In this document: one piece after another, positions 1-46,612 of the stretch | Numbering within the stretch: the stretch's first letter is position 1 | How the letters are laid out: every line of letters begins with the position of its first letter | DNA from: Candidatus Kapaibacterium sp. | GTDB taxonomy: Bacteria; Bacteroidota; Ignavibacteria; Kapaibacteriales; UBA2268 | DNA length: 64,000 nucleotides | Assembly: GCA_963664875.1 (NCBI GenBank) | Contig: OY761611.1 | Location: 1,824,001 to 1,888,000 of the forward strand | Direction: 5' to 3' | The notes under the pieces: model-generated | The model's input: the letters and a program-made list of their open reading frames with translations, nothing else | The model's database searches: none | What the model was told of the DNA's origin: nothing | Program-made: the position numbers and the translations under genes

Positions 1-436
1 GAAAACTACTGTCATCATACAAAGGCTGTCTGAGGATAGGTGAATCTATGCCAAACTCCTTAAATACGGGAACTTCTTTGTCAAACCTGATGATTGTATC
101 GTCAGTAATGTAATCTATACCAAAATTATACCTTGCAAGTGCTGAATGTTTGGTAAAGTTAATTACTGACTCACAATTTGCCTGACTTGACCACTTTGTG
201 TATCTTATTGTATCCTTACCTCTTACTATCTCATCCACATGCCAGGTAGTATCGCCCGATGGTGGAATTATCCAAAATCCTCTATCTGTTCCTACCCAAA
301 GATTCCCGGTAGAGTCAAACGAATGTTGAGTTAATACCACACCTTTTATATATTCAAAATATACGGGGTCGTTCCAGCGTTCTGCTTTGCTGCTGATTGC
401 TGTAATCAGGAGGAGTAAATATATGGTGTATTTCAT
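1..436 (-). CDS. Partial (runs off window edge) 4th paralog of the tandem T9SS cargo array
   Basis: ATG at 436; my translation MKYTIYLLLLITAISSKAERWNDPVYFEYIKGVVLTQHSFDSTG...DSPILRQPLYDDSSF is near-identical to the N-termini of 478..1905 and 1946..3370. Confidence 0.9.
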   Translation of the reverse strand, partial: MKYTIYLLLLITAISSKAERWNDPVYFEYIKGVVLTQHSFDSTGNLWVGTDRGFWIIPPSGDTTWHVDEIVRGKDTIRYTKWSSQANCESVINFTKHSALARYNFGIDYITDDTIIRFDKEVPVFKEFGIDSPILRQPLYDDSSF

Positions 437-477
437 AGTTTGCCTCTTTGATTGGATTGTTTGGGTAATTATCATTA

Positions 478-1905
478 CTACTCTACCGCGAAACCTATGC
501 TACGCTTCTCGCTGCCATTGTCTATCACAAGGTAGTAGATTCCGGTACTTATATCCTCAACATCTATCTGTTTACTGCCGAATGCCTCCGAGGCGTTGTA
601 ACTGTAACTGCCGTCAAGCTCCTTAATTTTGCAGCCCATATAGTCATATATTTCAAATTTTACTTTCTCGCGGTAATTTGGATTCAAAAAGAAGTTTACC
701 GTTACCATACGTTTCGCAGGATTTGGGTATAGCTTAGTAGGCAGTACCGTTGGGAAACCCTCTGTTTCTTCAGCTACTGAGGTAGTGTCCTTATAGATAT
801 TATAACTTACTGCACCCTGATAATGCCACTTGCCGTCTTTGCCCTTTATTCCATCACTCCAATAAAAGAAAAACCACAAGCACTTTTTATCCGGTGACAT
901 ATATAGTCGCTCAGGGCCTTCGTATTCCCTTATTGGATCATTTGGTCTGTCAATCAATTCCCAATCTTTGCCTTTGTATTTGATAAAAAAACCATAGTGT
1001 TCATGAATATAAGTAATGTGTGCGATACTGAAATCTTCATTTACTTCTCTGATATTAAATTGTGCATCAGGATTTACGTTTTTACATGTATCGTGCATCG
1101 CAGTAGTCGATAAATCTTCGACTGTATAGTCCATAGTGTATAAATTCAATGTAAACATCTGCCATTTGTTATTCGTAAAATATAGCAGACTGTCTTTAAA
1201 CAAATATGATTCTATTTTTTGATTAGTGTCCTGAACCAATTCTCTCAAATTTACCGCATATTTCCCTTTTTCATCAAAATATGTGATATTGTAATAATAG
1301 GATGGATATACATAATTATCTTTTAGTTTATGGAGTTTATAATCTTCATATTTTATCTGTGGGACATAAGGCACACTATCATAACTAATCAAAAATTCCC
1401 ATTCTAAGGTTCTTTCCGAAAATTTGAATACTCCCGGATATTTATATACATAATTTTCTATCTTGCACAGAAAACTACTATCATCATACAAAGGCTGTCT
1501 GAGGATAGGTAAATCTATGCCAAACTCCTTAAATACAGGAACTTCTTTGTCAAACCTGATGATTGTATCGTCAGTAATATAATCTATGCCATAATTATAT
1601 CTTGCAAGTGCTGAATGTTTGGTAAAGTTAATTACTGACTCACAATTTGCCTGACTTGACCACTTGGTGTATCTAATTGTATCCTTACCTCTTACTATCT
1701 CATCCACATGCCAGGTAGTATCGCCCGATGGTGGGATTATCCAAAATCCTCTTGTAGAACCAACCCACAAATTCCCGGTAGAGTCAAACGAATGTAGGGT
1801 TAAATTTACGCCTTTCAGGTATTCAAAATATACGGGGTCGTTCCAGCGTTCTGCTTTGCTGCTGATTGCTGTAATCAGGAGGAGTAAATATATAGTGTAT
1901 TTCAT
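478..1905 (-). CDS. Secreted protein with T9SS type A C-terminal sorting domain; probable beta-propeller body
   Basis: Signal peptide; FDSTGNLWVG blade-like motif; C-terminal LYPNPA...GIYYLVI...FAVE typical of a T9SS CTD. Confidence 0.85.
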   Translation of the reverse strand: MKYTIYLLLLITAISSKAERWNDPVYFEYLKGVNLTLHSFDSTGNLWVGSTRGFWIIPPSGDTTWHVDEIVRGKDTIRYTKWSSQANCESVINFTKHSALARYNYGIDYITDDTIIRFDKEVPVFKEFGIDLPILRQPLYDDSSFLCKIENYVYKYPGVFKFSERTLEWEFLISYDSVPYVPQIKYEDYKLHKLKDNYVYPSYYYNITYFDEKGKYAVNLRELVQDTNQKIESYLFKDSLLYFTNNKWQMFTLNLYTMDYTVEDLSTTAMHDTCKNVNPDAQFNIREVNEDFSIAHITYIHEHYGFFIKYKGKDWELIDRPNDPIREYEGPERLYMSPDKKCLWFFFYWSDGIKGKDGKWHYQGAVSYNIYKDTTSVAEETEGFPTVLPTKLYPNPAKRMVTVNFFLNPNYREKVKFEIYDYMGCKIKELDGSYSYNASEAFGSKQIDVEDISTGIYYLVIDNGSEKRSIGFAVE

Positions 1906-1945
1906 AGTTAGCCTTTTGGATTGGATTTTTGGGTAATTATCATTA

Positions 1946-3370
1946 CTACTCTACCGCGAAACCTATGCTACGCTTTTCGCTGCCATTGTCTATCACAAGG
2001 TAGTAGATTCCGGTACTTATATCCTCAACATCTATCTGTTTACTGCCGAATGCCTCGGAGGCGTTGTAACTGTAACTGCCGTCAAGTTCCTTAATTTTGC
2101 AGCCCATATAGTCATATATTTCAAATTTTACTTTCTCGCGGTAATTTGGATTCAAAAAGAAGTTTACCGTTACCATACGTTTCGCAGGATTTGGGTATAG
2201 CTTAGTGGGCAGTACCGTTGGGAAACCCTCTGTTTCTTCAGCTACTGAGGTAGTGTCCTTATAGATATTATAACTTACTGCTCCCTGGAAGTGCCACTTG
2301 CCGTCTTTGCCCTTTATTCCATCGCTCCAATGAAAGAAAAACCACATACGCTTTTTGTCAGGGGAAATATATATTCGTCCCGGTGAAACATATTGTCTGA
2401 CTGGATCGTTAGGTCTGTCTATCATTTCCCAATCTCTATCTTTATATTTGATGTAAAACCTTGCGTAATCAATATCTGCAACAAAAGCAATGCAGAAATC
2501 TTCATTTACTTCTCTGATATTGAACACTATATTCTCACTTGCTTTTATACTTGTATCGTACATCGCAGTTGTCGATAAATCTTCGACTGTATAGTCCATA
2601 GTGTATAAATTCAATGTAAACATCTGCCACTTGTTATTAGTAAAATATAGCAGACTGTCTTTAAATAAATATGATTCTATTTTTTGATTTGTGTCCTGAA
2701 CCAATTCTCTCAAATTTACCGCATATTTCCCTTTTTCATCAAAATATGTGATATTGTAATAATAGGATGGATATACATACTTATCCTTTAGTTTATGGAG
2801 TTTATAATCATCATAACTTATCTGCGGTACATAAGGCACACTATCATAACTCATCAAAAATTCCCATTCTAAGGTTCTTTCCGAAAATTTGAACACTCCC
2901 GGATATTTATATACATAATTTTCAATCAAGCACAGAAAACTACTGTCATCATACAAAGGCTGCCTGAGGAGAGGCGAATCTATGCCAAACTCCTTAAATA
3001 CGGGAACTTCTTTGTCAAACCTGATGATTGTATCGTCAGTAATATAATCTATGCCATAATTATACCTTGCAAGTGCTGAATGTTTGGTAAAGTTAATCAC
3101 TGACTCACAATTTGCCTGACTTGACCACTTGGTGTATCTAATTGTATCCTTACCTCTTACTATCTCATCCACATGCCAGGTAGTATCGCCGGATGGTGGG
3201 ATTATCCAAAATCCTCTATCTGTTCCTACCCAAAGATTCCCGGTAGAGTCAAACGAATGTTGAGTTAATACCACACCTTTTATATATTCAAAATATACGG
3301 GGTCGTTCCAGCGTTCTGCTTTGCTGCTTAATACTGTAATCAGGAGGAGTAAATATATGGTGTATTTCAT
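1946..3370 (-). CDS. Secreted protein with T9SS CTD; tandem paralog
   Basis: Near-identical to 478..1905 outside a variable patch; identical CTD. Confidence 0.85.
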   Translation of the reverse strand: MKYTIYLLLLITVLSSKAERWNDPVYFEYIKGVVLTQHSFDSTGNLWVGTDRGFWIIPPSGDTTWHVDEIVRGKDTIRYTKWSSQANCESVINFTKHSALARYNYGIDYITDDTIIRFDKEVPVFKEFGIDSPLLRQPLYDDSSFLCLIENYVYKYPGVFKFSERTLEWEFLMSYDSVPYVPQISYDDYKLHKLKDKYVYPSYYYNITYFDEKGKYAVNLRELVQDTNQKIESYLFKDSLLYFTNNKWQMFTLNLYTMDYTVEDLSTTAMYDTSIKASENIVFNIREVNEDFCIAFVADIDYARFYIKYKDRDWEMIDRPNDPVRQYVSPGRIYISPDKKRMWFFFHWSDGIKGKDGKWHFQGAVSYNIYKDTTSVAEETEGFPTVLPTKLYPNPAKRMVTVNFFLNPNYREKVKFEIYDYMGCKIKELDGSYSYNASEAFGSKQIDVEDISTGIYYLVIDNGSEKRSIGFAVE

Positions 3371-3410
3371 AGTTTGCCTCTTGGATTGGATTTTTGGGTA
3401 ATTATCATTA

Positions 3411-4850
3411 CTACTCTACCGCGAAACCTATGCTACGCTTTTCGCTGCCATTGTCTATCACAAGGTAGTAAATCCCGGTACTTATATCCTCAACATCTAT
3501 CTGTTTACTGCCGAATGCCTCGGAGGCGTTGTAGCTGTAACTGCCGTCAAGTTCCTTAATTTTGCAGCCCATATAGTCATATATTTCAAATTTTACTTTC
3601 TCGCGGTAATTTGGATTCAAAAAGAAGTTTACCGTTACCATACGTTTCGCAGGATTTGGGTATAGCTTAGTGGGTAGTACCGTTGGGAAACCCTCTGTTT
3701 CTTCAGCTACTGAGGTAGTGTCCTTATAGATATTATAACTTATTAAAAATTTATACATTTCTCTTCCATTAATCACAGTATCCGGAATTACTGTGTAGAA
3801 GAAATAAAACCATACCTTATCTTTATCAGGAGAAAATACCGGGTACTCAGGCCCGTCAACTGAGTATTTACCTAAGAAAGATCTGTCTATTACCCGCCAA
3901 TCTCCACCTTTATATTTAATATATATCGAGCTGTCTATTTTTTGATAGAGATTATTAGTCATCATAAAGTCGTCATTAATTTCCCAAATTGATATGTATA
4001 AATTTGGATTTGCATCAATATGGTTTTTGTACATAGGAGTAGCTCTCAAATCTTCGACTTCATAATTAAAAGTATTCAAGTTGATTTTATACCACAAATT
4101 AGAAGGAGTTGTGTAATGTAAGATACTATCTTTGAAATAGTATGATACTGACATCAGAGAAGTATCTTCTGTCAATTCGAGAAGATTCACTCCATATCTC
4201 TTACTTTCGTTAAAAAAAGTAATCCCGGAATTGTAATTAGCGTATATATAGAAATCATTCCATTTGTAAAATGGAAATGCATACATCGCCAAATTAGGTA
4301 CAGTGTAAGTTGAATCAAATTTACAAAGTCGAGTCCATTCTTTGGTTTGTTCAGAATATTTAAAAAAACCTAAATACTTATGAAGACCATCTGCAATTAG
4401 GCATATATATGAGCTATCATAATAGAAAGCACTCTGAATGTTTAGTTTTAAGATATTAAATTGACTGAAAAATGGGTAGGTATTATCAAATCGAACTAAT
4501 TCATTAGATGTCAGATAGAATATTGTGTCATTGCAATGCCCCAAAGCAGTCTCCTCATGCCATAGAATATAGGCTTTTTTATTAGTAGGGTCATTTGCAT
4601 ATTGATTGTACCAGAGTGTATCATTGTTTCGCGCTAAGAAAGGTATATATTCTGCAGTATCTTTCCCATCAGCAACTACCCAAAAGCCTTTGTTAGTCGC
4701 AAACCACAAGTTGTCTTCATAATCGTAGCTCGAGACAGTACTTTCAACCCAAACATAATCATAGCCATCTAAATATATTTTTTTACTCCATTCACCGGAA
4801 GTAAGATTAATAGAATACATTATACTTATGATAATAAAAAACAGTCTCAT
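3411..4850 (-). CDS. Secreted protein with T9SS CTD; divergent paralog
   Basis: Likely start ATG 4850 (MRLFF, preceded by AAGGAAA); body divergent but colinear; C-terminus from SYNIYKDTTSV identical to the other copies. Confidence 0.85.
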   Translation of the reverse strand: MRLFFIIISIMYSINLTSGEWSKKIYLDGYDYVWVESTVSSYDYEDNLWFATNKGFWVVADGKDTAEYIPFLARNNDTLWYNQYANDPTNKKAYILWHEETALGHCNDTIFYLTSNELVRFDNTYPFFSQFNILKLNIQSAFYYDSSYICLIADGLHKYLGFFKYSEQTKEWTRLCKFDSTYTVPNLAMYAFPFYKWNDFYIYANYNSGITFFNESKRYGVNLLELTEDTSLMSVSYYFKDSILHYTTPSNLWYKINLNTFNYEVEDLRATPMYKNHIDANPNLYISIWEINDDFMMTNNLYQKIDSSIYIKYKGGDWRVIDRSFLGKYSVDGPEYPVFSPDKDKVWFYFFYTVIPDTVINGREMYKFLISYNIYKDTTSVAEETEGFPTVLPTKLYPNPAKRMVTVNFFLNPNYREKVKFEIYDYMGCKIKELDGSYSYNASEAFGSKQIDVEDISTGIYYLVIDNGSEKRSIGFAVE

Positions 4851-4877
4851 AGTATTTCCTTTCAAAATAGTATATGG

Positions 4878-4908
4878 AATCGGAACCAATCTAAGATTGA
4901 TTCCGATT
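4878..4908. other. Intra-operon stem-loop
   Basis: Minus strand AATCGGAATCAATC-TTA-GATTGGTTCCGATT just after the stop of 4915..5592; U-tract only on the plus strand. Confidence 0.6.
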
Positions 4909-4914
4909 TTTTTA

Positions 4915-5592
4915 TTATTGACATTTTACATCACATTCGATTTCAATGGGCTCTTCACCTCTAATAGAATCTTCTGGATAGTAATAAGATGTGCCTGGAC
5001 AGGTATTTCCTATATTTGCTTTTCTGCTTATTAAAGTTTGCGATAGCTCTAACTCTTGAGTTACAGGATTCCAAGTCCAACAGTCTTCATAAATGCTCAA
5101 GCATGTGGCATCTTCATCACATCGTACATATTCGAAAACCGGACGAAGCCAAGTTTCGTCGCCTTCAGTTCTTACATAGCACTCATTTACAGATGTGCAG
5201 GCTGCAGAAATTAGATGGACTGTGATTTGCCTACCTACATTACAAAAGATATAAGGTATTTCCAAATCTTCAGTTAGTTTCTTAACAAGAAGTTTGTTCC
5301 ATTCGTCTATAGACTCCCAATAGTTCTCTTTGAAACGACGCATAGCTTCTTTGGTTTCTTCCTCACATTCCGGACTTTTTGCTACGAACTCAACATGATG
5401 AAATTCGACATTTAAAACAAAATTTTGATTATCATAAAGATAACAAGCAACTACCCTGATTTGGTAGCAATCAGTTTCTTCAACATCAATAGTTATAGCT
5501 GTATATCCGGGTTCGCACTGTGCTTGTGCTTTAGAAGAAAATGCCAGGATGGCAAATAACATTAAAGATACAGATAATATGAAATGTTTCAT
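4915..5592 (-). CDS. Secreted cysteine-rich hypothetical protein
   Basis: Signal peptide ending AQA-Q; 13 Cys in the mature part; acidic; RBS AAGGAAG. Confidence 0.8.
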   Translation of the reverse strand: MKHFILSVSLMLFAILAFSSKAQAQCEPGYTAITIDVEETDCYQIRVVACYLYDNQNFVLNVEFHHVEFVAKSPECEEETKEAMRRFKENYWESIDEWNKLLVKKLTEDLEIPYIFCNVGRQITVHLISAACTSVNECYVRTEGDETWLRPVFEYVRCDEDATCLSIYEDCWTWNPVTQELELSQTLISRKANIGNTCPGTSYYYPEDSIRGEEPIEIECDVKCQ

Positions 5593-5836
5593 GTGTATCT
5601 TCCTTTACTAAAATTAGAAAATATATTTAATACACATGACAAGTACTTGGATACTCGTCTATCCAATATGCACCGGCCTTTTAAATGTTTTGACTGCAAT
5701 TATTGTCCGGCGTTAAGTGGAGGTCGGGCATTTTTACCCGGCCTCTGCTATTTCTAACTTACCATTAGAAATTAGCACCTAAAAGTGTCATTAAGTAACC
5801 ATATCGTCTTTCCTGTATATGTTATTGATTTATCTT

Positions 5837-5864
5837 AATATAGAAAAAAAAAAAAACATAGCAA
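5837..5864 (-). promoter_or_regulatory. Putative sigma70-type promoter with T13 tract in the spacer
   Basis: TTGCTA-[TG T13 C, 16 bp]-TATATT on the minus strand, upstream of the 5592 operon. Confidence 0.5.
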
Positions 5865-5944
5865 AGGAATTTTTGCAAATCTTAAAATAAATATTGATTT
5901 TACGTATAAACCCTTAATTTCCATTTCTACGTGTTTTCCGCAAT

Positions 5945-5983
5945 AAAAAACCGCACTACTCCACTATTTGGAATAATGCGGCT
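5945..5983 (-). terminator. Intrinsic terminator of aconitase gene
   Basis: CCGCATTATTCCA-AATAG-TGGAGTAGTGCGG followed by T6. Confidence 0.8.
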
Positions 5984-6004: not shown

Positions 6005-8266
6005 TTAGGCGTTTTGCTGCTTGATAAGATTCAATGCAGATCCGGCTTTAAACCAAGCAATTTGCGACTCATTATAAGTATGAATTGTTTCAATTTCGTC
6101 TAAGCTTCCGTCAGAATGTTTAAGAATTACCTTAACTTTTTTACCCGGAGCAAAGTCTTTAATTAATACATCTATGGTATCATCTTCCAATATCTTGTTA
6201 TAATCGTCTTTATTATCAAATGTAAGAGCCAACATTCCCTGCTTTTTAAGGTTTGTTTCATGAATTCGGGCAAAAGATTTGGTAAGCACTACTCTTACGC
6301 CAAGATGACGAGGTTCCATAGCAGCATGTTCGCGTGAAGAGCCTTCTCCGTAGTTTTCATCACCCACAACAATAGAGCCTATGCCCTGAGCTTTGTATGC
6401 TCTCTGCACTTTAGGCACTTCGTCGAAGCTACCATCGAGCTGATTTTTAACACTATTGGTTTCTTCATTGAAGAAATTAACAGCACCTGTCAGCATATTG
6501 TCAGAAATATTATCCAAGTGACCTCTAAATCTCAACCAAGGCCCGGCCATAGAGATATGGTCAGTAGTGCATTTTCCTTTTGCTTTTATTAGGAGCTTCA
6601 AGCCGGTCATATCCTTGCCGTCCCAAGCACTGAAAGGCTCTAATAATTGTAGTCTGCTCGAAGCAGGATCTACCAATACTTCTACATTAGAGCCATCTTC
6701 TGCAGGTGCCTGATAGCCGGCATCTTCTACTTCAAAGCCTTTTTGCGGAAGTTCGTCGCCTGTCGGCGCATCAAGCATTACTTCCTGCCCGTCTTCATTT
6801 ATCAGTTTATCAGTAAGCGGATTAAAGCTCATACTTCCTGCAATAGCTAAAGCAGTTACAATTTCAGGAGAAGCAACAAAACCATGTGTATTAGGGTTGC
6901 CGTCGTTTCTTTTCGCAAAGTTTCTGTTGAAAGAAGTAATAATAGAGTTTTTCTCTTTTTTATCAGCACCATGGCGAGCCCACTGGCCAATGCAAGGTCC
7001 GCAGGCATTAGCAAGCACTACGCCGCCGATTTTAGCAAAATCATCAATAAACCCGTCACGTTCGATAGTGTATCTAACAATTTCCGAACCCGGAGTGATG
7101 GTATATTCCGATTTGACTTTCAAATTTTTTGCAACAGCCTGCTTAGCTAAAGAAGCAGCTCTTGAAATATCCTCATAAGATGAGTTTGTACAAGAACCAA
7201 TAAGACCAACTTCTAATTTTTCAGGCCAGTCGTTTTCTTTCACTGCTTCAGCCATTTTGCTGATAGGAGTTGCAAGGTCAGGAGTAAACGGACCATTGAT
7301 ATGTGGCTCTAATTCAGAAAGATTAATTTCGATAACCTGATCAAAATATTTTTCAGGATTAGCATAAACTTCTGCATCGCCGGTTAGATACTCGGCATTA
7401 GCCTGAGCCATATCTGCTACTTCTTTTCTGCCCGTAGCAGCGAGGTAATCATACATTTTTTGGTCGAATCCAAAAGTAGAAGTAGTAGCTCCGATTTCAG
7501 CACCCATATTGCAGATAGTACCTTTACCGGTACAGGAGAGTGACTGAGCACCTTCTCCGAAGTATTCTACAATAGCTCCCGTACCGCCTTTCACGGTAAG
7601 GATACCTGCTACTTTGAGTATAACGTCTTTTGCGGCAGTCCATCCACTCATTTTGCCTGTCAATTTCACGCCTATAAGTTTAGGATACTTCAACTCCCAA
7701 GGCATTCCTGCCATTACGTCCACTGCGTCAGCACCACCAACTCCGATAGCAATCATGCCAAGTCCGCCGGCATTTGGCGTATGCGAATCGGTACCAATCA
7801 TCATCCCGCCCGGGAAAGCATAATTTTCCAAAACGACCTGGTGGATAATACCGGCACCCGGTTTCCAAAAACCTATGCCATATTTATTAGATACAGATGC
7901 AAGAAAGTCGTAAACTTCTTTGTTAGTATCTTTAGCAACTTCCAAATCTTTATCAGCTCCGACTTTCGCCTGTATAAGGTGGTCGCAGTGCACAGTAGAT
8001 GGCACGGCAGTGCGGCTTTTTCCTGCCTGCATAAACTGTAGTAGTGCCATCTGAGCAGTAGCATCCTGCATTGCAACTCTATCGGGGCTAAAGTTGACGT
8101 AATCTTCGCCACGTTTAAAATCATTCAAATCATTTTGCTCATAAAGGTGAGCAAGAAGAATTTTTTCCGCTAAAGTAAGCGGTCTGCCTGTTACTTCCTT
8201 TGCTTTGTTCACTTTAGCAGCAAAAGAAGCATAGTGCCTTTTAAGCATCTCAAGATCAAAAATCAT
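6005..8266 (-). CDS. acnA: Aconitate hydratase (mitochondrial-like type)
   Basis: [60 protein letters not shown] motifs. Confidence 0.95.
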
Positions 8267-8455
8267 TACATTGCACCTATATATATAGAAAGAAACCTAA
8301 TTACTAAATTATAAGAAGTAGGCTGTACCTATTAATCCTTATTCAAATTATGATTTTCACCCTGAATTAGCTCACAATTAACACAAAGATTGTATTTTTC
8401 ATTCGAAATCTTAAATCCAATCCAGTACTTGTATCATTATTTTATCGGAGCAGTA

Positions 8456-10927
8456 ATGCCAAAACTCCGTCTTAATCTATTTAGCAAAGTATTCGGCTTT
8501 GCAGCCCTATTAGAGCTAATTATGGTCGTTATTGTACTTTTTTCAGTTTTTGCTTTCAATACACAAAAAGAACGAGACGATTTCCGGGAAATACAATCTC
8601 TGATGTTAGAAGCTAATCACCAGAGAAGCGACTTTTCAAAATACAGAGACTCCGCTTCAGTTTCAAAATTCAATCAAAAAATTGCTTCGATCGACAGCAT
8701 TTTGTTAGATTATAGAGACGACAATACTATATCTTCATTTCTACTGAAAAAGAAAGATTATAAAAAAATCTTTGAAAATTATGAAAATGAGATGGCAAAA
8801 CGCGGACTCGACGAGGAATCCGGAATAGAAGGAGCGTTTAGAAAATCGGTACATGAGCTGGAATCCAAAATAAAAGAACTCGATTCAAAAGACATGATGA
8901 TTGCCATGCTTCAAGCTCGAAGAAGTGAGAAAGATTACCTTATGCGTAAAGACGACAAATACGTAAAAAAAGTAAATATGGCTATCAGCTCTGTAATCAA
9001 ATTAGCAGAATCTAAATCAATAACACCATCAGACTTTGCTTCAATCAAATTGCTTGCCGACAATTACCTTTCAACATTTTCTTCCACGGTAGAAGTATTT
9101 AAAAAGTTAGACGAACTCGAAACTGCAATAATCGAAGACGAAGCAGAAATCTTAGCAATAGTTAAAGACATTTGCCTTCAAAAAACTATAAAAGCAGAGC
9201 AAATGAAAAATATACAGTACATTGCCGCAGGTCTTTCTATTCTTCTTGGTCTCATACTATCTTATATTATTGCTAAAGGAATCACAAAACCGGTAAACAA
9301 TTTGCAACAATTAGCAAAACAAATAGAAGCAGGTGACTTTTCAATTCCTGAAAAGATAACGGCAAGTGACGAAATCGGCGAACTCTATAATTCATTTACG
9401 GATATGACTTCCGTTCTCTCAGGATTGATCACAGAAGTAAACCATCTGACTCACTCTGCAGCGGAAGGTAAGTTAAGCATCAGAGGCAATTCTTCTAAAT
9501 ACAATGGAGGCTTCAAAGAAATTATTGAAGGCTTGAATCTGACTATGGATAACCTCCTAATACCTACAAATATCACTGCTGAATACATAGACAGAATATC
9601 AAAAGGCGATGTGCCGCCCAAAATCGAAAAAGAATTCATGGGCGATTTCCGTGAATTGAAAAACAACATGAACACTTGCATTGATGCAATAAATATGCTT
9701 ATCAAAGATACAGATATGCTGGCAGGTGCTGCACAGACCGGTAATCTTAGCACACGTGCAGATGCTTCATTACACAAAGGCGACTTCAAAAAAATTGTTC
9801 AGGGGGTAAATCTTGCTCTTGATTCAATAGTAGATCCAATAAGCGAAGCCGGCGAAATTTTGAAAGATTTATCCAATGGCGATTTGACTGTGCAGATGAC
9901 CGGCAACTACCAGGGAAGAATGGATTTGCTAAAACGAGACATAAACAGCTTAGCCAGTACATTCCGTGCATTGATTAAACAGGTATCAACTTCTGTATCT
10001 ACAGCTGTGGCTGGTTCCCACCAAATTAGAATGTCCACCGACGAATTCCTTGTGGCTTCTAAAGAAACAGAACAACAAACAGAATTAGTCGCTAATTCTA
10101 TTGACGAAATGAGCAGAACGCTACAAGAAAATGCACAAAGCACTCATCAGGCAACTGTAATGGCTGAAACAAATCGGGAAATCGCAACTGCAGGATTCGA
10201 AATAGTTGGCAAAACTGTAAACAAAATGAGAGATATAGCCGGTTTGGTGAGAAACTCTGCTGAGGAAATCGAAAAACTTGGAGATTCTTCCAAAAAAATT
10301 GGAGAAATAATTTCAGTAATCGATGAAATCGCTGACCAGACCAATCTTCTTGCTCTAAATGCTGCCATCGAAGCTGCCAGAGCAGGCGAACAAGGCAGAG
10401 GTTTTGCAGTGGTAGCTGACGAAGTAAGAAAGCTTGCCGAAAGGACTACCGACGCTACTAAAAGTATCACTAATATGATACAGGGAATACAACAGGAAAC
10501 ACAAAAAGCTGTAAACGAAATGGTACGTGGTACTTCTGAAGTTACAATTGGTATCGAGCTTGCAGATCAGGCAGGTGATTCGCTGAATAAAGTAGTCAGC
10601 AGCTCTGAAGAAGTACTCGATATGATTAACCAAATTTCTGCTTCAAATGCTGAGCTTTCTGCGACAGGTGATGAAATTGCAAAACATGTGGTCTCCATTT
10701 CCAAAATGACTAAAGACTCTGTCAATAGTCTTCAGGAAATTGCTGACTCTGCTAATAATCTTGACAAGCTAAATAGCAAAACAAGTAAGTTTATGACTAA
10801 TTTCAAAATATCCAAGCATAATGGACTAAATATGCAAAATCAGGATTTATTCGACGATGAAGATGATTATTATTCAGAGCAGCACGAAATGATAGCTCTA
10901 AGCGACGGTAACTCTTATGAAATGTGA
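8456..10927 (+). CDS. Methyl-accepting chemotaxis protein with periplasmic sensor and poly-HAMP
   Basis: Two TM segments, repeated HAMP units, [40 protein letters not shown]; ATG 8456 preferred over TTG 8390. Confidence 0.95.
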
Positions 10928-11158
10928 TAGCTGATAGCTTTTCTTTCAAAATATCATTACATATATTAATGTATAGGCAAGGTGTGCGAGGCATATACTT
11001 GCCTTTTTTTTCTATGATAATCCGTAATGTCCTTACTGATTGAAAATCGCACTTCACAATAAGCTATATCGATATACGCCTAAATTGAAATCAAAACATA
11101 TTTGTTTATAATCAAATATGACAGATAATACTTTAATAATAATTTTGGATTTATAGAG

Positions 11159-11578
11159 ATGAAAGCTAATCTTAAATTAGACAGAAATATGCGGATTATC
11201 GGAACAAACGAAAAAGGGTTGGAAACTATTTTTGATACTTCTCCCAAGGTAGGAGGAGAAGATACGGCTCCGACACCAATGGAAATTATGCTACAATCTG
11301 TTGCTGCCTGCTCATTTATGGATACTATCAGCATTCTTCGTAAAAAAAGAAAAACTATAATAGATTTACAGATAGATATCGAAGGCGAAAGAACAGAAGA
11401 GCATCCAAAAATTTTTAAAACGATAGTTCTAAAATACACTCTTACAAGCCCCGATGCTGAATTGAATGATTTAGAACGAGCAGTCGAACTCTCACAGGAT
11501 AAATACTGCGGTGCTTCTGCGATGATGAAGTTAGCAGGAGCAGATGTCAGCTATCAGGTTGATTTGAAAAGACCTTAA
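11159..11578 (+). CDS. OsmC/YhfA family protein
   Basis: PTPME...AACS...D, R.EEHPKIF, LSQDKYC motifs. Confidence 0.9.
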   Translation: MKANLKLDRNMRIIGTNEKGLETIFDTSPKVGGEDTAPTPMEIMLQSVAACSFMDTISILRKKRKTIIDLQIDIEGERTEEHPKIFKTIVLKYTLTSPDAELNDLERAVELSQDKYCGASAMMKLAGADVSYQVDLKRP

Positions 11579-11590
11579 AATAAATATGCA

Positions 11591-11639
11591 AGCACTCTCA
11601 AAATAGTTTCATTTTTTACTAAAATGATTTTGAGAGTGC
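11591..11639 (+). terminator. Stem-loop after OsmC gene
   Basis: GCACTCTCAAAAT...ATTTTGAGAGTGC inverted repeat; long loop and weak U tract. Confidence 0.5.
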
Positions 11640-11689
11640 CTTATATATCTTTATCTTTGTTGTTTTTTACCCGAACCGAGAACAGCACC

Positions 11690-12979
11690 ATGAAACCACC
11701 ATTTTCTGATAAAGAAATTGTATTTGAATTGCCTCCTTTTGAATCTGGTATTCTGAAAAACGGCACTGAATACTATCTAATAAATGATTCTAACCAGACT
11801 ATTACTACTATAAATATAATTGCCCCTGCAGGTGCTTATTTTGACAAAAAAAACGGAACAGCAGCATTTGCTGCAAAGCTAATGCAACGAGGCACTATCA
11901 AACACAACGCCACTGAATTGAGTAGATTAATCGAAAATATGGGGCTCAACCTTTCGGGGTCAGCTCTTTGGGACGAAGTTTCATTCAATCTGACAGGGAT
12001 GCCTCAGTTCATAGAAGATGGTCTGGATTTACTTGGCGATATATTATTTCATCCTACATTCGAGGAAAAAGAACTTGAGTTTCTGAAATCCAAAACTATT
12101 TCTTCGATTGAACAAGACTTGGTAAACCCTGCTTACTTGGCTCAAGTTGCTTTCAATACTAACCTTTATAAAAATCACCCTTATGGCAGATCACGTGTCG
12201 GCACAATAGAAGAAGTTACTCTTATTGATAGGAATGATTGCATTGAGTGGCATAATAGTTTGCTAAAATCTAAGATGTCAATTTTTGTAGCCGGCAATTT
12301 TGCCAAAGATAGAATCCTTTCAAAATTAGAAACCATATTTTCATCCGCTAATTTAACGGATAATCAACCGGTTTATTCTCAAGTAGCATACTCTCTATCA
12401 GCAACTCCAATACTTGCCGAAAAAAAAGAAGCTCCACAAGTTACTGTCAGATATGGTTTCCCGACGATAAACAGAAATGATGCCGATTACCCATATCTGC
12501 AGTTAATCAATACAATCCTTGGAGGATACTTCCTCTCTCGATTGAATAAAATTATTCGTGAAGAAAAAGGTTATACTTATGGGCTACATTCGACTATAGA
12601 AAATAGAAAAGCTTCGTCGGCTTTTTATATTTCGACGGATATAAATGCAGATAAAGTAAAAGAAACATTAGCAGAAATTGATAAGCAAATTGATATAATT
12701 GCCTCAAACAAAATACCTCACGAAGAACTCTTGCAGGCACAAAGATACATTCTCGGCATTTTTCTCAGATCTACTGAAACTCCTCAGCAAGCTGCCTCAC
12801 TTATTAGAACTACAAAAATCTATGGGCTGCCGATAGACTACCACAAGCAGTTAGTTTCTAAAATCAGTAAAGCAACGCCTGAAATGCTCATGCCGTATCA
12901 AGCTAAATTTTTTGGTAAGGTTCCAAAAACTATAGTACTTTGTGGTGACATAGATAGAATAAAAGCACAATTAGGCTAA
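11690..12979 (+). CDS. M16 family peptidase, non-catalytic (clamp-type) subunit
   Basis: LKNG start, RGT motif without HxxEH, HPYG, ILGG...SRL...IREEKGYTYG. Confidence 0.85.
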   Translation: MKPPFSDKEIVFELPPFESGILKNGTEYYLINDSNQTITTINIIAPAGAYFDKKNGTAAFAAKLMQRGTIKHNATELSRLIENMGLNLSGSALWDEVSFNLTGMPQFIEDGLDLLGDILFHPTFEEKELEFLKSKTISSIEQDLVNPAYLAQVAFNTNLYKNHPYGRSRVGTIEEVTLIDRNDCIEWHNSLLKSKMSIFVAGNFAKDRILSKLETIFSSANLTDNQPVYSQVAYSLSATPILAEKKEAPQVTVRYGFPTINRNDADYPYLQLINTILGGYFLSRLNKIIREEKGYTYGLHSTIENRKASSAFYISTDINADKVKETLAEIDKQIDIIASNKIPHEELLQAQRYILGIFLRSTETPQQAASLIRTTKIYGLPIDYHKQLVSKISKATPEMLMPYQAKFFGKVPKTIVLCGDIDRIKAQLG

Positions 12980-18068: not shown

Positions 18069-21000
18069 ATGAGTTATTCTTCTACCCGACAAGCAGGCAG
18101 AATTTTTCTTGCCTCTTTGTTCTTCTTACTCTTCGCCGGTTTAGAACTGAGCGCTCAGTATTACGAATTTTCCTTGCTCCAAAGGAGAAGATTTGACCAA
18201 ATTGATGTTGAAGTCTGGGCGAAAGCTCTTCAGCAGGGTGCTCCTGCTCTGGGTAATTCGTCTTTGGTTTTAGAGTATAACACTGCTTTTTTGTCTCCTG
18301 CAGCTACTCAAAACCTAAGTTCGACTGACAGTATCACTTTCAATGTGAACCAAAGCAATCCTATTGCGACGGTTAGCTCTTCTTTTAGTCAATCGGCTAA
18401 CGGATACAATCCGCTCAGCTCTCGCTCTTACGGTATGGGATATTATGCTCTGGAGCTTAACCTTGCAGCCCTCGGTCAAGGTGGTGTATCACCGTCTTCT
18501 TCAGGTAAAGGTAGCTTCCTTGGCAAACTTACTTTTGACATATCGGGTAGCCCTACCGAAAGCTCTTTGACTAACATTGCTTGGAGCAGCAACGTACTTC
18601 CGGGTGAAATTCAGGTATTTGATAAAGATTCTAATAGCATAAAAAGCAATATCACTTTTAGCAATCCGGGCGATTACAATGTACTCGGTGTAACTATCCT
18701 CTCCCCTAATAAATACGGTCAGGTAGTCGATAGAGATGCTGATTATGCAGCTCTTTCAGGAGAATACACAAGCGGTGGCTATCCAATCTATTTCGAAAGA
18801 AGTATCAATCCTTCTCAATATACTGCCCCTATAGATGAAGACTTGGCTTATATGTTCCAATATTCTCTCAATAATGGCAGCACTTGGACTGAGATTGGCA
18901 GAGTGGCTGAAACTGACCAGCCTTCTACAACAGTGGGTATAAATGCTTCTTATACGGCTGGCGAAATATTCAATCCTAACACCGGTACTTCATTTACAAT
19001 CACAACACAAAAAGGTGAAAAGATTGACAATTCGAACTACCGTCAACCACTTAGAGTTGTTTGGGCTAAAAATCCTTTCTTTGTTGAACGCTCAGAACAG
19101 GCAAGATTGAAAATAATAAAATTGTCAGGTGCAGTGAGCACGCCTCTGAGCAATCGCAATCAAGATGTATATAATGATGTAAATGACCAAAAATTTGTAC
19201 TTGGCAGACTTTTCTTCTTGCAGTTGGACGGTAACAGCCAGTACCTTGTTACTAATGATAATTTTAGTAACTCTACACAGCTAACAGTAGAGACTTGGAT
19301 AAATTTGAATGAATATCAAACAAGCGGTACCGAACCGGGTATAGTAGTTTCAAGCGGAGGTGCTAATGCTGCACCTATTCACGGTTCTAATGAAGGTGCA
19401 TGGATGCTTTACCTGAAAGATGGAAGGATTCCTGCCTTCCGTGCAAGAGAAATCGAAGGCAGAGGAGATAACGGCTACATAGGTACAGTACAAGCTTATT
19501 ATCTCGACTCACTGCTCGCTGCATCCGATGCTGAACCTCTTGATAACACCCATGCTAATAACTGGGTACATCTTGCAGCTACTGTAAATAATAACACGCT
19601 TAGATTATATGTGAACGGCGAGCTTGCCGATCAGGTAGTTAATAACAATGCTACTAATATCAGAATGCTGACTACCAACCACCCAGTTTGGATTGGTGTC
19701 AATCCTAATGGCGGAATCGAAGCAAACGACTATCTCCATGCAGGAATTAAAAGCGTTCGGGTTTGGAGAATAGCCCTAACTCAAGACGAAATAAGAGAAA
19801 GAGTTAGCGGCATATTAAACCCTGAAGATGTTAGCACTTACGGTGATGTAAGACGCGGTTTGCAGATGTATTTCACATTCGAGGGCGAACACGCAGATCA
19901 GGCAACAGAAACTACCTACCAAGGTGGCGCAGAAAGTCCTGACTTTTACACTCAGGGCACAGTTGACAATTTCGGAATGACTTACAGACCTGACCAGCCA
20001 CACATTACTCTTACCAGTCCTGTGGCAGGAGCAGGTGTCTCTAATAGAGCAGGTTCTACTTTTGGAATCCGTTGGGTTGCTTATGGTTTGGGCGATCTTA
20101 CAGCTACCGGTACAAACGATGTCGAAATTGAATACTCATTAGACGGCACTAACTGGTACTATGCAGAAGACGCAAGCGGAGCTCAAATCGGTGGAATTAA
20201 TGCTCCCGATGTAGAACCCGGCTCAGCGATATGGGAACCTTACGAAAATGAAAACAGTGCTGCTAATCTAAGAACTATTAATCCATATTCAAGATCGGTA
20301 TATCTCAGAGCTCGAGGCACTGCAGCGAACACTCAGGATAATTTGATGGATGTTGTAGGTCCTTTCACTGTTGCTCCTTATTTTGCAATCAAAAAAGAAG
20401 AAGGTGCGATACTACTTCTCGAAGATAATGCAGGTATGAATATTACAGGCGATAAAGTCTTCATGGAAGCATGGATCAGACCTTATAGATTCCCGACAGA
20501 GGCAGAAGAATTCTTCCCAATTATTACAAAAGCTGATAGCACTGCTGATATGTTGCACTATAGCTTCGATTTGAGATATGATGGACGACTTCAGCTCAAA
20601 CTTTCAACAGAAGACGGCAAGGTCAGAACAGCTATAAGTGACGCATCTTTTGCTCTCGAAAGACCTAATTCGGTATCTGCTGATTCCGTATGGTCTCATG
20701 TGGCAGTTTATGCTAATATCAATGGCGGAAGCGGTCAATCTGAAGTAATATTTTATGTTGATGGTATCGCCCAAAGAGCTGATTCCATTACTACTCAGCT
20801 TGGTACAGATTTGACGCTCAACAGCTTAAACTCCTACCCTACTTATATCGGATATTCTCCATATATGAATGTTACTAACGATGGGCAGAGCGTAATCAAT
20901 GCTAAGCAGACAGAAAACATTGTCCTCTCAGGCAACATCAATTCCGGTACTCCTGCTAATACAGAAAGGAACTTTACCGGCACAATTTACGACAAAGATT

Positions 21001-24000
21001 ACAACACTCATACATTCGACTTTAACCTTCTTAAAACGGATAATGCTAGAGAATTTACTATAGCAACGTTGGTCGATGGTAATCAAATTCCGAGGGCTAC
21101 ACAAAATGTATCGCTTACAGGAAATATCAATAACACTCAAGCTGAAAACGATACTTATTCTACTCAGGTGCTTGTTTACGATGAATCAGATGCGGAATTG
21201 ACCTTAGGATTCACTTTTACAAAAACAGCTAATAATAGCGAATTTAATCTTGCTATCAATTTAGGGAATAATAATGTCAATTTGCAGCAGCTTTCTTTCG
21301 CAAGCGGTGTAGCAAATCCTTCGTCGATAACTTTAAGTGCTACTGATTTGAATAATGCAGGTGGTAATTTTAATACAACTATCCCTAAAGATCTTATCAT
21401 AAGTCTATCAGGCTTGACTTACACTGCAAACGCAAATGATGCAGCAGCAAGTACTATAACATACAGAACTTTAACATTCAACTCTGACGGCAGTGTAAAC
21501 TCTCCGGCTACACTTACTTTTAGTGCAGCTGACATGAATACAGCTGCAGGCAATCCGGTATTTACTTCTGATGTAAAACTTTGGATTGGTCCTGCGTCAA
21601 GTCAGGCAACCGGAGTTACATATCTACCGTCAGGCAATACATTTACTTTCGCTTCACAAGATGGCGGCACAGGTCAGTCTATTGTAGTCAATGATACACT
21701 TAATGCAGCATACTTTATTGGCGAACTACGTGAATTACGTATGTGGCAAGGTTCTCCGAATAACACTTCCACAACAGGAAACGAACCAACAGCACAGAGT
21801 TTGTTTGTTCAAGGTGCTCAGGCAGTTAGAGCTGCTTCACTTGCATCTTCCTATGTAAATAATCTAAATATGGCATTCTCCTTCGATGGAGGCTCCTTTA
21901 TACAAAATGGTTACAACAGAGCAATTGACGTTTCGACAACTGACTCTCAGATTCTTGTCAGAAACTTTGGTCAAAAGGTAGAATATGCAGCAACAGAACC
22001 TTATATCAAAGTTGTAGAACCTGCATTCAACGACCGTGTAGCTAATACAAAAGAAGATGTCAGAGTAAGATGGGTTGGCTTTGATTATCTACCTACGGGA
22101 TTCCCTACGGGTGATGCAGCACCTACAGCTCCTGCATTGGAATTTTCTATCCGCGGCGGCGGTGGTAAGCTTATTCAGCCATACCAATACGTAGGTAGCG
22201 ATTACTACACAGGCAACACCCAAGACGCAATGAGCTTCCCAAATACAAGCTCGTACATATTCAAAGGTACAGGTTCAGATATTTATTATGCTACTCAGCT
22301 AAATGCTTCAATTTCTGATCCGGACGAAGATAATAACGGAACATTTACAGACCAGGGGCCTTTGTCTGCATCGTTAACCAACGCAAGACTTAGACTTTCC
22401 GGCAGATATACTATCAATGGCGAAACTTCTTATATCAATGACGAAGGTCCGCTATTTACTATCACTCCTGCTTCAAACTTTACCATCAGGGTGCTTTTAG
22501 AAGGATACCATAACGGTTCGACAAGTGGCAATCAGATTCGCGAATTAGCTTCTTCATACGAAGCTGGCGGTCTGATGATAAAACTTTACACTGACAATAG
22601 TGGTGCTTTGGGAGAACTAATCGGAACTGCTGAATCTCTCGAAGGCTACGATGAGCTTGACCCTGCTAACAGAAACAATGGTAACAACCGATTTGCAAAT
22701 GTCAATTTTGTATTTACTGACTTAACAGATGGCAATTACTGGGTTGTAGTTTACCATAAAAATCACATGCCTATTATGTCTCGTTTCGCAGTTCCTTTCC
22801 AATACGAAGGAGATGACAGAACAACATGGGCTATCGAATCCGGTTGGGATTTCCATACATGGAACGGCACAAACAATAATGCTTTGGTCAATGCCTCCGG
22901 CGATGCATGGAGCTTAGGTGCATTTACTGCTTACGGTGATGTCATCTCTACAACAAGTAATCCACTATTTACTACTACAGGGCTAATCAACAATAACGGT
23001 GTTGGCGGTGGCAGCGAAAACGCAATGTCTGCTATGGTTGCAGGCGACGTAGATCGCTCAGGTCAGATAGACGCTGCTGACAGAATTAGAGTTAGATTAG
23101 ACGAAGGTACTTCTATAGTGGGATCTGACGTTACAGGCGATGGATTTGTCAATGCTGACGACAGAACAATAGTTGATAGAAACCACGGCCACATTGCTTC
23201 AATTTATAATGTCAATTTCCCTGACGGTGATTTCAAAGCTCCAATGGTAAGAAAATCGCCTCTCTCTGCGAAAGGCCCTTATGAAACAGAAGTAGCAGGC
23301 TACGAAGCACTTTCAAAAATTTACAACAAAACAGCTCAAAACTATAAAGCAGTTGAGAAATATATTAAAACTAATTCTGACCGCTTACTTGCAGGTTTGA
23401 ATTATAAAGTTTCTGCAACTCCTGATATTCATGATGGAGTGGTTGATCTTAATGTTTATATCGAAAATATCGGTGATGACTTTGCACTCGCTAATTGTAC
23501 TTTCGCTTTCGAATACAACGAAGCAGATATGAAATATGCTTCTTTAGTTGGTACAGGCGATGTAATTTTCAACAATAACCCTTCTATCGGTTATGTAGAA
23601 ATGAGTAGTGCACCAGATGCAGATGTGATAAATCCTTTGGAAAGTGTTAGAACTATCGAAGTGGATTATATCACAACTTCAGGATTGCCGGGCGAAATAG
23701 TTCCTCGTCAAAAAACATATTTAGGTACATTGCGTTTCAAACTTACCAATCCGGTTGGCAGAGTATTCTTCAAATGGCATACTTCAACTTCGCTGCATTC
23801 TGTTGATGGCAAGATTGTGACCAAATACGGAAAGTTCGAAACAATTACCCCAATCATTCTTTTCAACGCTTCGCTTACAGCTCCTAATGGCGGTGAGCAG
23901 CTTAGCCAAGATAGACCTTACGATATAACTTGGAGCTCTAACGGTACTTCAGGTGCATATTTAGAATTCTCTTATGACGGCGGTGTCGAATGGGAACGAA

Positions 24001-34489: not shown

Positions 34490-34856
34490 TTCGTAAACTC
34501 CTAAATATAATATGTCATTTTGTCAAACAATTTATTTGTTACTTTGCATTTCTGTCAGTCTTTCTCAGACTGTGACATTATGGCTTATTTAATGTCAAAA
34601 TTGCATTGTTTGTTATGTATATATAACATTTACCAATACCGTGCCAAATTGCAAACGCTAAGTATTATGACATTTTATTACCAAAAACAATTAGAAGCAC
34701 TTCAACTTTCAAATAAGCAAAAATTCTTGCAACTATAGCATTTCTATTACGTTTAAAATTGGTATTGAAATATAATATTTCTTATGTATATTGTTTTTTA
34801 TAAACTTACATTGCAAATACACCATGTACGGCATTATTACTTTAGAAACCTGCGAT

Positions 34857-45973: not shown

Positions 45974-46612
45974 CCAATTGATCCCAAAAATGCTGACAGT
46001 TTTATCTCTATGCAGCATATCTTCGAACATATAGCTTAGTTCTATATCGGAAAATCGGGTGATTTCTACCTGAGCACCTATTGCATAGCGTGCTTTATAG
46101 ATTCTTCCTTTATCTTCTCCGAGAGAGCTGTAAAATAAATCAACTGACACGAAAGGTTCCAACTTTTTGTCGTATTTGTATGCAATTTCAAACTTATTTC
46201 TATACTGCTCGGGCGAATCCGTGAGTTCGGAGTATTTCCTGTGATAGCGCAATCTATACGAAAAGTCAAAATCGCCTAATTCAAAACCAGTCGAGATGTT
46301 CCCATACAGCTCATGTCGGGCGTAAGAGCTGAATGATCTATATCTATAAGCACTGCTAATCTTTAAAAAGTCAAACAAATCATAGGACAAAGAAAAATCT
46401 GTTACACTTTGCCCAAAAGAATTGATATTATTATCAAATCGAAATTCCTGTGCTACTGCAAATTCAAAATCATTGGATATAACATAAGACAACTCCACGC
46501 CTGACCATAGCTCAGAATCAGTATTTGCTTTTTCGATGGGTTGCGAAAACGCAGGCACAGCCATCATTAGCAACAAAAAACTAATTATACCTGTTAACTT
46601 TTTCATCTTCAA
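45956..46612 (-). CDS. DUF2490-like outer-membrane beta-barrel protein
   Basis: Signal peptide, alternating beta strands, RNK.EI.Y...PF.S.D/ELFY, aromatic C-terminus; in VTC/DUF4956 operon. Confidence 0.7.
   Translation of the reverse strand: MKMKKLTGIISFLLLMMAVPAFSQPIEKANTDSELWSGVELSYVISNDFEFAVAQEFRFDNNINSFGQSVTDFSLSYDLFDFLKISSAYRYRSFSSYARHELYGNISTGFELGDFDFSYRLRYHRKYSELTDSPEQYRNKFEIAYKYDKKLEPFVSVDLFYSSLGEDKGRIYKARYAIGAQVEITRFSDIELSYMFEDMLHRDKTVSIFGINWSYKFY

Follow-up and report, generated by a model that had tools for sequence, protein, structure and literature searches.

Type IX secretion system (T9SS) cargo proteins are mostly known as enzymes, adhesins and gliding proteins of Bacteroidota, and to our knowledge little has been learned about T9SS exports in the sister lineages of that phylum. 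Here we describe a locus at the left edge of a 64-kb stretch of the Candidatus Kapaibacterium sp. genome (assembly GCA_963664875.1, contig OY761611.1, positions 1,824,001 to 1,888,000; hereafter the window, in whose own numbering coordinates are given unless another genome is named). It comprises a gene for a putatively exported cysteine-rich (Cys-rich) protein followed by a tandem array of genes for T9SS cargo with predicted beta-propeller bodies; four of the latter, in the order of transcription after the Cys-rich gene, are designated A, B, C and D. The locus is real, undescribed and fast-diverging, while the mechanism proposed for it in a first-pass annotation is only partly supported. With modest confidence, we read it as a lineage-restricted, chromosomal, contingency-type surface-protein operon of Kapaibacterium-like bacteria of the FCB (Fibrobacterota, Chlorobiota and Bacteroidota) group. 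Literature searches found no paper on this gene pair, which agrees with the annotation's failure to recognise it as a described system.

Five kinds of known systems invite comparison. Typical T9SS type-A cargo (PF18962/TIGR04183) resembles the products of A, B and C in consisting of a signal peptide (putative here), a functional domain, a linker and a C-terminal beta-sandwich sorting domain. However, the sorting domain is here of a family-specific subtype, the linker is acidic and conserved, and the cargo domain belongs to no described family. The best structural matches to that domain are PorZ and the sensor propellers (Reg_prop) of Bacteroides hybrid two-component systems (HTCS), with which it has a Reg_prop-like blade motif in common; PorZ likewise carries a T9SS sorting domain, according to the title of its PDB entry. 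PorZ and HTCS proteins contain two propellers in about 740 residues, whereas the proteins described here have a single propeller and possess neither a Y_Y_Y domain nor a kinase part.

Phase-variable contingency loci, such as surface genes of Neisseria, Haemophilus and Mycoplasma, possess homopolymer tracts in the promoter spacer. The Kapaibacterium locus likewise has such a tract, flanked by −35-like and −10-like hexamers that lie upstream of the putative surface-protein operon, with lengths of 7, 8, 13 and 14 among four relatives; unlike in contingency loci, these are lengths compared between genomes only, and the promoter consensus may not be that of this phylum.

Gingipain/HagA-type surface proteins of Porphyromonas gingivalis have C-terminal segments in common as a result of domain rearrangement and gene conversion, as described in PMC5266723. 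They too are T9SS-exported surface proteins diversified by recombination of paralogous or allelic segments; their genes are dispersed and serve virulence with adhesin modules, whereas the window holds a tight tandem propeller array of an environmental FCB bacterium, and the homogenised part is exactly the linker, sorting domain and spacer. Polymorphic toxin systems include the TANFOR class of Bacteroidetes, proposed to be T9SS-linked (PMC7073777). In such toxins the N-terminus stays constant and the toxin tip at the C-terminal end varies, while the immunity genes downstream are small and their products cytoplasmic or periplasmic. These toxins are similar to our locus in being secreted, in combining a constant trafficking part with a variable one, in being followed by arrays of related genes, and in diverging strongly between strains. 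However, the constant part of the array studied here is C-terminal and the body varies, its members are full-length proteins predicted to be exported, and no toxin domain was detected in them.

Propeller array and its 3′ cassette

All genes of the locus lie on the minus strand. Paralog A (3411–4850) encodes 479 aa comprising a putative signal peptide, a propeller body, a linker and a T9SS type-A sorting domain; we read it from the ATG at 4850 and not from the TTG that opens the longer open reading frame (ORF; 3411–4889), which brings its N-terminus into alignment with relatives. It is followed by B (1946–3370; 474 aa) and C (478–1905; 475 aa), the latter being 87% identical to B in the body and 100% in the tail. 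Only the first 145 codons of D, counted from a family-type start at 436, are available (2–436; ORF 2–475), as the array runs off the left edge of the window inside this gene, and the number of propeller copies is a lower bound.

A repeat search recovered 300-nt families spaced 1465–1469 nt apart at 94–97% identity. Although the body of A is only 33–34% identical to those of B and C at the protein level, the last 109 residues are identical in all three. At the DNA level, both a sliding comparison and a codon-by-codon view of A against B and C rise from 30–63% in the body to 96–100% over the last 330 nt and the entire spacer, the jump falling exactly at the codon for S of the sequence SYNIYKD. 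The resulting constant cassettes, all on the minus strand, cover 3371–3740 in A (330 nt, i.e., 109 codons and the stop, plus a 40-nt spacer), 1906–2275 in B (tail plus 40-nt spacer) and 437–807 in C (tail plus 41-nt spacer); the spacers mutually differ at 1–3 positions. The coordinates, the 13 cysteines of the leading protein, the divergent A, the shared C-terminus of about 110 aa and the spacers of 40–41 nt are thus all present as the first-pass annotation had them. Its description of at least three near-identical paralogs does not hold uniformly for B, C and D, as the bodies of B and C are 87% identical in protein.

Eight DNA sites vary within the cassette and 8/8 of the variants are synonymous, while synonymous sites make up 67.5 of its 330 positions, about one in five, which puts the tails of A, B and C under purifying selection from the time of their homogenisation onwards. 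The same contrast between body and tail was observed in one of three related genomes (L001, L002 and L003, introduced below), each of which carries two tandem propeller genes (p1 and p2). Identity of body and tail is 33% and 100% for A and B of the window, 58% and 98% for p1 and p2 of L002, 34% and 48% for the pair of L001, and 21% and 46% for that of L003. DNA of the L002 pair changes from 50–78% to 97–100% identity over the last ~300 nt, and the downstream spacer is not common to both genes. Tails of the window are 42–67% identical to those of other genomes, which makes them the best conserved part of the family, and are only 65% identical to those of L002, so homogenisation occurred independently in 2 of the 4 genomes. 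Being both best conserved and family-specific, the tail is a natural substrate both for unequal crossing-over, as the source of tandem copies, and for gene conversion, as the process that preserves their similarity. Judging from these identity profiles, the constant tail is a product of gene conversion, and the idea of an export cassette kept constant by dedicated design gives way to gene conversion or unequal crossing-over.

An alignment of copies B and C over 1558 columns shows 133 differences, 68 of which fall in one 232-column patch spanning the last propeller blades (2336–2565 in B; counterpart 868–1100 in C). A second, small patch (3197–3299 in B; 1732–1834 in C) holds 19 differences. 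Over the entire genes, Nei-Gojobori estimates of the nonsynonymous (dN) and synonymous (dS) rates are 0.057 and 0.261, respectively (dN/dS ~0.22). Within the main patch, dS reaches 1.1–2.0 and dN 0.15–0.30; since both are raised together, the patch is an older segment imported by recombination, and positive selection as its origin was ruled out. Paralog D is nearer to B (dS 0.113) than to C (dS 0.237), which points to mosaic copies. Tallied by base, 71 patch differences involve all four (A 18, C 14, G 14, T 22); a diversity-generating retroelement was rejected, given this lack of adenine bias and the absence of a reverse transcriptase among the window ORFs scanned. By these rate estimates, all copies are under purifying selection. 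The view of the downstream copies as selected alternative specificities consequently finds no support in B, C and D, whose selection is purifying and whose patch is an imported older segment.

The sorting domains of A, B and C exceed the curated cut-offs of both Pfam (PF18962, 42.6–42.9 bits against 27) and NCBIfam (TIGR04183, 25.3–25.6 bits against 23), in agreement with the annotation's assignment of the C-terminal domain; D ends at the window edge before this region and was left out. A hidden Markov model (HMM) of the tail scores 130–178 bits on the nine complete family members (3 from the window, 6 from L001–L003) and at most 66 bits on other sorting domains. The window's own copies receive 177–178 bits, compared to 33 and 20.6 for its two other T9SS cargoes, and by this measure the sorting domain of the array is a distinct, family-specific subtype. 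Those two cargoes are a 2309-aa Laminin_G_3 protein (18069–24998) and a 1128-aa S8 subtilase with a BNR/Ycf48-like propeller (56607–59993). In most family members, the linker, disordered elsewhere, also carries a conserved acidic motif, S-[VI]-x-E-E-T-[ED], immediately ahead of the sorting domain (B residues ~374–385); this motif may serve as a processing or attachment site of this cargo subtype.

Beyond the sorting domain, A, B and C contain no Pfam or NCBIfam family above cut-off. A single Reg_prop blade (13.4–13.7 bits) stays under the Pfam cut-off of 20.4, a Ycf48-like stretch is likewise sub-threshold, and one Reg_prop-like blade motif, DSxxNLWxGTxxGxW, is present in the family. An AlphaFold2 model of B, built from a 12-sequence family alignment, reached a mean predicted local distance difference test (pLDDT) score of 78.3 and a predicted template modelling score (pTM) of 0.69. 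It consists of a helix at residues 2–18 corresponding to the signal peptide, ~28 strands within residues 35–368, a disordered linker (373–396; pLDDT < 50) and a tail of seven strands (399–473; pLDDT 74–83). From the list of strands we infer one propeller of seven four-stranded blades. Foldseek comparison of this body with the PDB placed Bacteroides hybrid two-component sensor propellers (3ott, 4a2m, 3va6 and 3v9f) and PorZ (5m11) on top, with E-values of 5e-9 to 4e-8 but TM-scores (TMq) of only 0.36–0.43, and generic WD40 propellers were almost as good. An Atlas search gave Reg_prop/PorZ_N clusters at 0.87–0.90, a lead only, and no sequence-level relative of the propellers was found in the PDB. 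According to the model, the bodies would fold as single Reg_prop/PorZ-like beta-propellers. Neither gene type matches a known enzyme family in Pfam, NCBIfam or PDB fold and sequence searches.

N-termini of the propellers are hydrophobic and, judged by eye, end in SKA|E, TSG|E and AG|KW. The combination of a signal peptide with a type-A sorting domain suggests that the propellers are sent to the cell surface or into the medium.

Distribution, gene order and divergence

Both families are exceedingly rare. An exhaustive profile search with three propeller bodies against 1.84 billion representatives yielded 11 at E ≤ 0.001 and 9 at E ≤ 1e-10, one of the 11 (P0013) being merely a Reg_prop protein matched over one blade; a word-indexed search with the body of B found no match, and the family surfaced only in the exhaustive one. 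A profile of the Cys-rich protein retrieved 4 proteins out of 5.8 billion: that of the window, P0016, which corresponds exactly to the gene of L002, P0017, which agrees with that of L003 at 226/227 positions, and P0002.

A scan of 185,579 species genomes with two tail peptide patterns and a 6-sequence alignment, in which the window's own genome is not among the loci, produced 525 pattern matches, 35 confirmed stretches and 29 loci, three of them (L001, L002 and L003) with a full-length match. Applied to every ORF of the window and of the 29 loci, an HMM of the propeller body detected four copies in the window, two in each of L001–L003 and none elsewhere; an HMM of the Cys-rich protein over the same ORFs detected it only in the window, L002 and L003. 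The other 26 loci were rejected as family members, as they have only a generic sorting domain in common; five of these loci (L004, L005, L007, L016 and L027) were sampled, and the six ORFs taken encode unrelated cargo, e.g., BNR propellers and Omp28. Searches of plasmid and phage collections gave 0 matches to either family, and a mobile-element origin was accordingly discarded.

The arrangement of a Cys-rich gene followed by tandem propeller genes, which the annotation had proposed to look for in related genomes, occurs in two of the three further genomes that carry the family, L002 and L003. Gene order in L002 is a 312-aa gene, the Cys-rich gene, two propeller genes and mraY; in L003 it is the 312-aa gene, mraY, the Cys-rich gene, two propeller genes and flagellar genes. 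L001 carries OsmC, an M16 peptidase, two propeller genes and mraY, with no Cys-rich gene in 21 kb. In the window, the operon lies beside an aconitase gene, and this gene together with a chemoreceptor gene separates it from OsmC and the M16 peptidase (11129–12979), which are on the opposite strand. With the operon beside aconitase in the window, and mraY downstream of the block in L002 but upstream in L003, the Cys-rich and propeller genes evidently stayed joined while their surroundings were rearranged.

Protein identity drops sharply on entering the locus. Flanking genes are well conserved: 77% for the M16 peptidase (329/428) and 94% for OsmC between the window and L001, 94–96% for mraY among L001–L003, and 82% for the 312-aa neighbour and 67% for a large sensor kinase between L002 and L003. 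The Cys-rich protein is 31% identical in every pair and full-length propellers 27–37% between genomes, their bodies alone 23–32% between the window and the other genomes. By these comparisons, the operon is an island of extreme divergence (27–37%) in conserved surroundings (67–96%), and the label of a diversifying secreted system is fair as a description of differences between lineages, as both gene types change far faster than their flanks. Fast divergence of both types between lineages is what would be expected of exposed binding proteins facing phages, grazers, competitors or partner recognition.

Several other features of the surroundings were recorded. OsmC and the M16 peptidase directly precede the propellers in L001 (7863–9683 of that locus), and their counterparts in the window lie on the other strand, so an inversion or rearrangement touches the locus. 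The gene at 8390–10927, next to the locus, codes for a methyl-accepting chemotaxis protein of 845 aa that includes a HAMP array, and flagellar genes flank the loci of L002 and L003, which suggests that the organism combines flagellar chemotaxis with T9SS cargo. The dnaA gene is located at 50054–51511, and the ~800 nt before it contain no long ORF; this region (49229–51511) is probably the replication origin, which would put the array ~45–50 kb away from it. A CHAD-domain protein and a trio of VTC, DUF4956 and DUF2490 genes (34791–35729 and 45956–48006) are polyphosphate-related by Pfam name.

The Cys-rich protein and regulatory features

The Cys-rich gene (4915–5592, minus strand) encodes 225 aa with 13 cysteines according to the ORF list. 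Its N-terminus resembles a signal peptide ending in AQA|QC, as judged by eye, and the mature part is acidic (pI ~4.4). Twelve cysteine positions are conserved, 10 in invariant columns and 2 shifted by a few columns, forming a framework with variable loops in between. The protein contains no T9SS sorting domain and no Pfam or NCBIfam family above cut-off; DUF6520 and XAC2610 were rejected as its identity, both being sub-threshold and the DUF6520 match falling on the signal peptide. It has no sequence match in the PDB, and fold searches of PDB and BFVD gave nothing at E ≤ 0.001. Since the protein carries no T9SS signal, its end point should be the periplasm unless it is carried out.

P0002, the one Cys-rich homolog not tied to a locus, comes from a contig of 3185 bases. 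Its signal peptide agrees with that of the window protein at 16/16 positions, while identity is only ~36% in the mature part (78/217 over the whole protein). This pattern suggests that, in a very close relative, the allele was replaced behind a leader that stayed constant.

The spacer between the Cys-rich gene and A (4851–4914, minus strand) holds a perfect 14-bp stem-loop at ~4878–4908, followed by a Shine–Dalgarno (SD)-like AAAGGAAA; SD-like sites are present 5′ of every gene. The 64-nt spacer folds with −18.7 kcal/mol (z −4.36, 0/200 shuffles as stable). An equivalent hairpin occurs in L003 (15 bp; z −5.58, 0/200) and a weaker one in L002 (z −2.25, 6/200), so that all 3/3 genomes having the Cys-rich gene possess a hairpin at its 3′ side, with no clear U-run. 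The three propeller-to-propeller spacers, folded likewise, are unstructured. As the structure recurs while its sequence differs, it may act in attenuation or transcript stabilisation, giving a higher yield of the Cys-rich protein than of the propellers. The annotation's single minus-strand operon is thus right as to the strand of all genes; one transcript is plausible but unproven, given the strong hairpin between the Cys-rich gene and A.

A consensus scan identified a promoter-like site at 5837–5864 (minus strand), TTGCTA-16 nt-TATATT, whose spacer consists almost entirely of T13 (5844–5856), the sole homopolymer of at least 10 in the 64-kb window. Homologous sites read TTGCTA-a-T7-gat-TATATT in L001 (the same two hexamers), TTTGTAG-T14-g-TATAAA in L003 and TTTTGC-T8 in L002. 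We regard the T13 tract as a candidate slipped-strand phase switch. A terminator-like hairpin with a T-run (5949–5983, minus strand), located 3′ of the aconitase gene (6005–8266, assigned by Pfam), bounds the operon's transcription unit on the 5′ side.

A leader of ~245 nt (5593–5836, minus strand) separates the promoter-like site from the start codon of the Cys-rich gene. By alignment, its counterparts occupy 7400–7628 in L002, 8975–9217 in L003 and ~9900–9950 in L001. Blocks of the leader, e.g., the invariant ACTTGTCATGTG, are conserved in L002 and L003 far better than the coding regions. It contains a GC-rich hairpin (~5720–5745), followed on the opposite strand by a T-run in L001, L002 and L003 and by a weaker one in the window; covariation is weak, with 3 sequences compared. 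Rfam families were rejected for the leader, since the search gave no family and only an 18-bit match at chance level. The hairpin may belong to a divergent or antisense small RNA or be a structure of the leader itself.

Competing explanations and biological meaning

Under the reading that we favour, a promoter-like site with a poly-T spacer would drive a structured leader, the gene of a Sec-exported, acidic, disulfide-rich protein, a stem-loop and at least two propeller genes. The second propeller gene would have been amplified in the window genome to at least three tandem copies (B, C and D), likely by unequal homologous recombination across the cassette of linker, sorting domain and spacer. 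Gene conversion would then keep this cassette near-identical in every copy, the old and divergent A included, while the copies swap segments and become mosaics, yet stay under purifying selection. The Cys-rich protein would be made in excess if the hairpin attenuates read-through. Its most likely role, we infer, is that of a binding partner of the propellers, i.e., a ligand, a periplasmic holder or inhibitor, or a co-exported subunit.

Several observations weigh against this reading. L001, the closest relative of the window, has two propellers and no Cys-rich gene in 21 kb, so the partner either is non-essential or has its gene at another site. The four genomes are closely related (mraY 94–96%), and a gene order that they have in common says less about function than one common to distant taxa would. 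The tree of propeller bodies is a star apart from three pairs (window B/C, L002 p1/p2 and P0009/P0011), and an approximately unbiased (AU) test does not reject A, B and C as one clade (p 0.289). Such a tree fits a separation of A from B either earlier or later than that of the lineages, and it fits rapid divergence of orthologues and replacement by non-orthologous paralogs alike. Promoter-like matches in the region number 34 against 26.8 ± 4.6 in shuffled sequences, not above expectation, and the scan does not cover this phylum's promoter type. The hairpin could, as a full terminator, make the Cys-rich gene a separate unit. AlphaFold2 models of the Cys-rich protein are unstable (pLDDT 80.6 for the best, 46.9–68.6 for the other four), and no T9SS core gene (GldK/L/M/N, SprA) is present among the 36 scanned window ORFs of at least 150 aa.

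Some of these points feed the alternative that deserves the most weight, though we think it unlikely: the two gene types may be mere neighbours, the Cys-rich gene being its own hairpin-ended unit with an unrelated periplasmic role and the propellers ordinary T9SS cargo (adhesins, glycan or ligand binders) that were duplicated by chance. The strong stem-loop that immediately follows the stop of the Cys-rich gene in 3/3 genomes and the propellers of L001 without a Cys-rich gene fit this explanation, and adjacency among close relatives may be inherited, not selected. However, the hairpins have no clear U-run, the block of Cys-rich and propeller genes is intact through at least two rearrangements of its surroundings, both gene types show the same unusual divergence, and each family is restricted to very few sequences (4 Cys-rich proteins and 11 propeller representatives).

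There is also a more ambitious form of the partnership, which we consider doubtful. It would be a T9SS-linked, phase-variable module of recognition or antagonism specific to Kapaibacterium-like bacteria, in which the Cys-rich protein, rapidly diversifying, disulfide-knotted and of a new fold, and a matching surface propeller co-evolve as a ligand-receptor or toxin-immunity pair. Recombination would swap entire specificity cassettes between two constant flanks, one at the signal-peptide end of the first gene, the other being the propellers' sorting-domain cassette, and the array would store extra specificities.

The model of the first-pass annotation appears improbable. It takes the Cys-rich protein for a secreted toxin, signal or ligand, A for its cognate immunity protein or receptor, and B, C, D and further copies for a stock of specificities, as in polymorphic toxin/immunity or kin-recognition loci that have orphan immunity arrays. 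Several features are in line with it: the Cys-rich gene comes first and the array after it, genomes that are otherwise similar differ extremely in both gene types, the 12-Cys framework is conserved with variable loops, the identical signal peptide and ~36% mature part of P0002 resemble a cassette replacement behind a constant leader, and L001 could be a toxin-less "immune cheater". However, no toxin, immunity or defence family exceeds the cut-off for either protein in Pfam, NCBIfam or PADLOC (a ZorA match at E 0.034 is due to chance, and a defence system was rejected on this basis), and the fold matches of the propellers are sensors and scaffolds, not toxins. The Cys-rich protein, having no T9SS signal, has no evident route out of the periplasm. 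The order of constant and variable parts is opposite to that of polymorphic toxins such as TANFOR (PMC7073777). The constant N-terminus and variable C-terminal tip of polymorphic toxins are not seen in the propellers, and the Cys-rich protein shows a constant signal peptide with a variable mature part in one pair only (P0001/P0002). No truncated or start-less orphan cassettes are present in the array: A, B and C are complete with a start, a putative signal peptide and an SD-like site, and D begins likewise. Array copies point the same way, resemble each other at 87–95% and evolve under purifying selection, dN being in no excess; there are no more than two propellers in each of the other genomes, and the genes are not on mobile elements. 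With its reversed polarity, the absence of a toxin or immunity signature in these searches and a putative signal peptide in every complete copy, the locus departs from the polymorphic toxin/immunity layout; in L001, moreover, the propellers occur without the Cys-rich gene. Three Cys-rich/propeller pairs (n = 3) are available for an analysis of co-variation.

An assembly artefact, in which strain variants of one gene were placed head to tail, would suit the high similarity of B, C and D and the array's reaching the window edge, but it can practically be dismissed, since the units are regular with conserved spacers and SD-like sites, dS between copies is 0.11–0.26 with all cassette differences synonymous, A has the same cassette with a different body, tandem pairs occur in three independent assemblies (L001–L003), and the Cys-rich protein is on record within a 3,827,814-base contig; chance or assembly collapse was rejected on the differences between copies (133/1558 columns for B and C) and the same-family tandem pairs of the three other genomes.

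Returning to the contingency-type surface-protein operon, the locus amounts to a compact, conserved two-family module, whose Cys-rich protein possibly represents a new, six-disulfide fold. It offers a clean natural case of a sorting domain serving as a recombination handle, with tandem amplification and concerted evolution having taken place independently in two genomes. The signatures of a contingency locus are its extreme divergence in a conserved neighbourhood and the variable poly-T promoter tract. If the two proteins do not bind each other, the locus would be an ordinary, well-documented family of fast-evolving surface-protein genes; if they do, it would provide a tractable model of co-diversifying secreted pairs outside the classical toxin systems.

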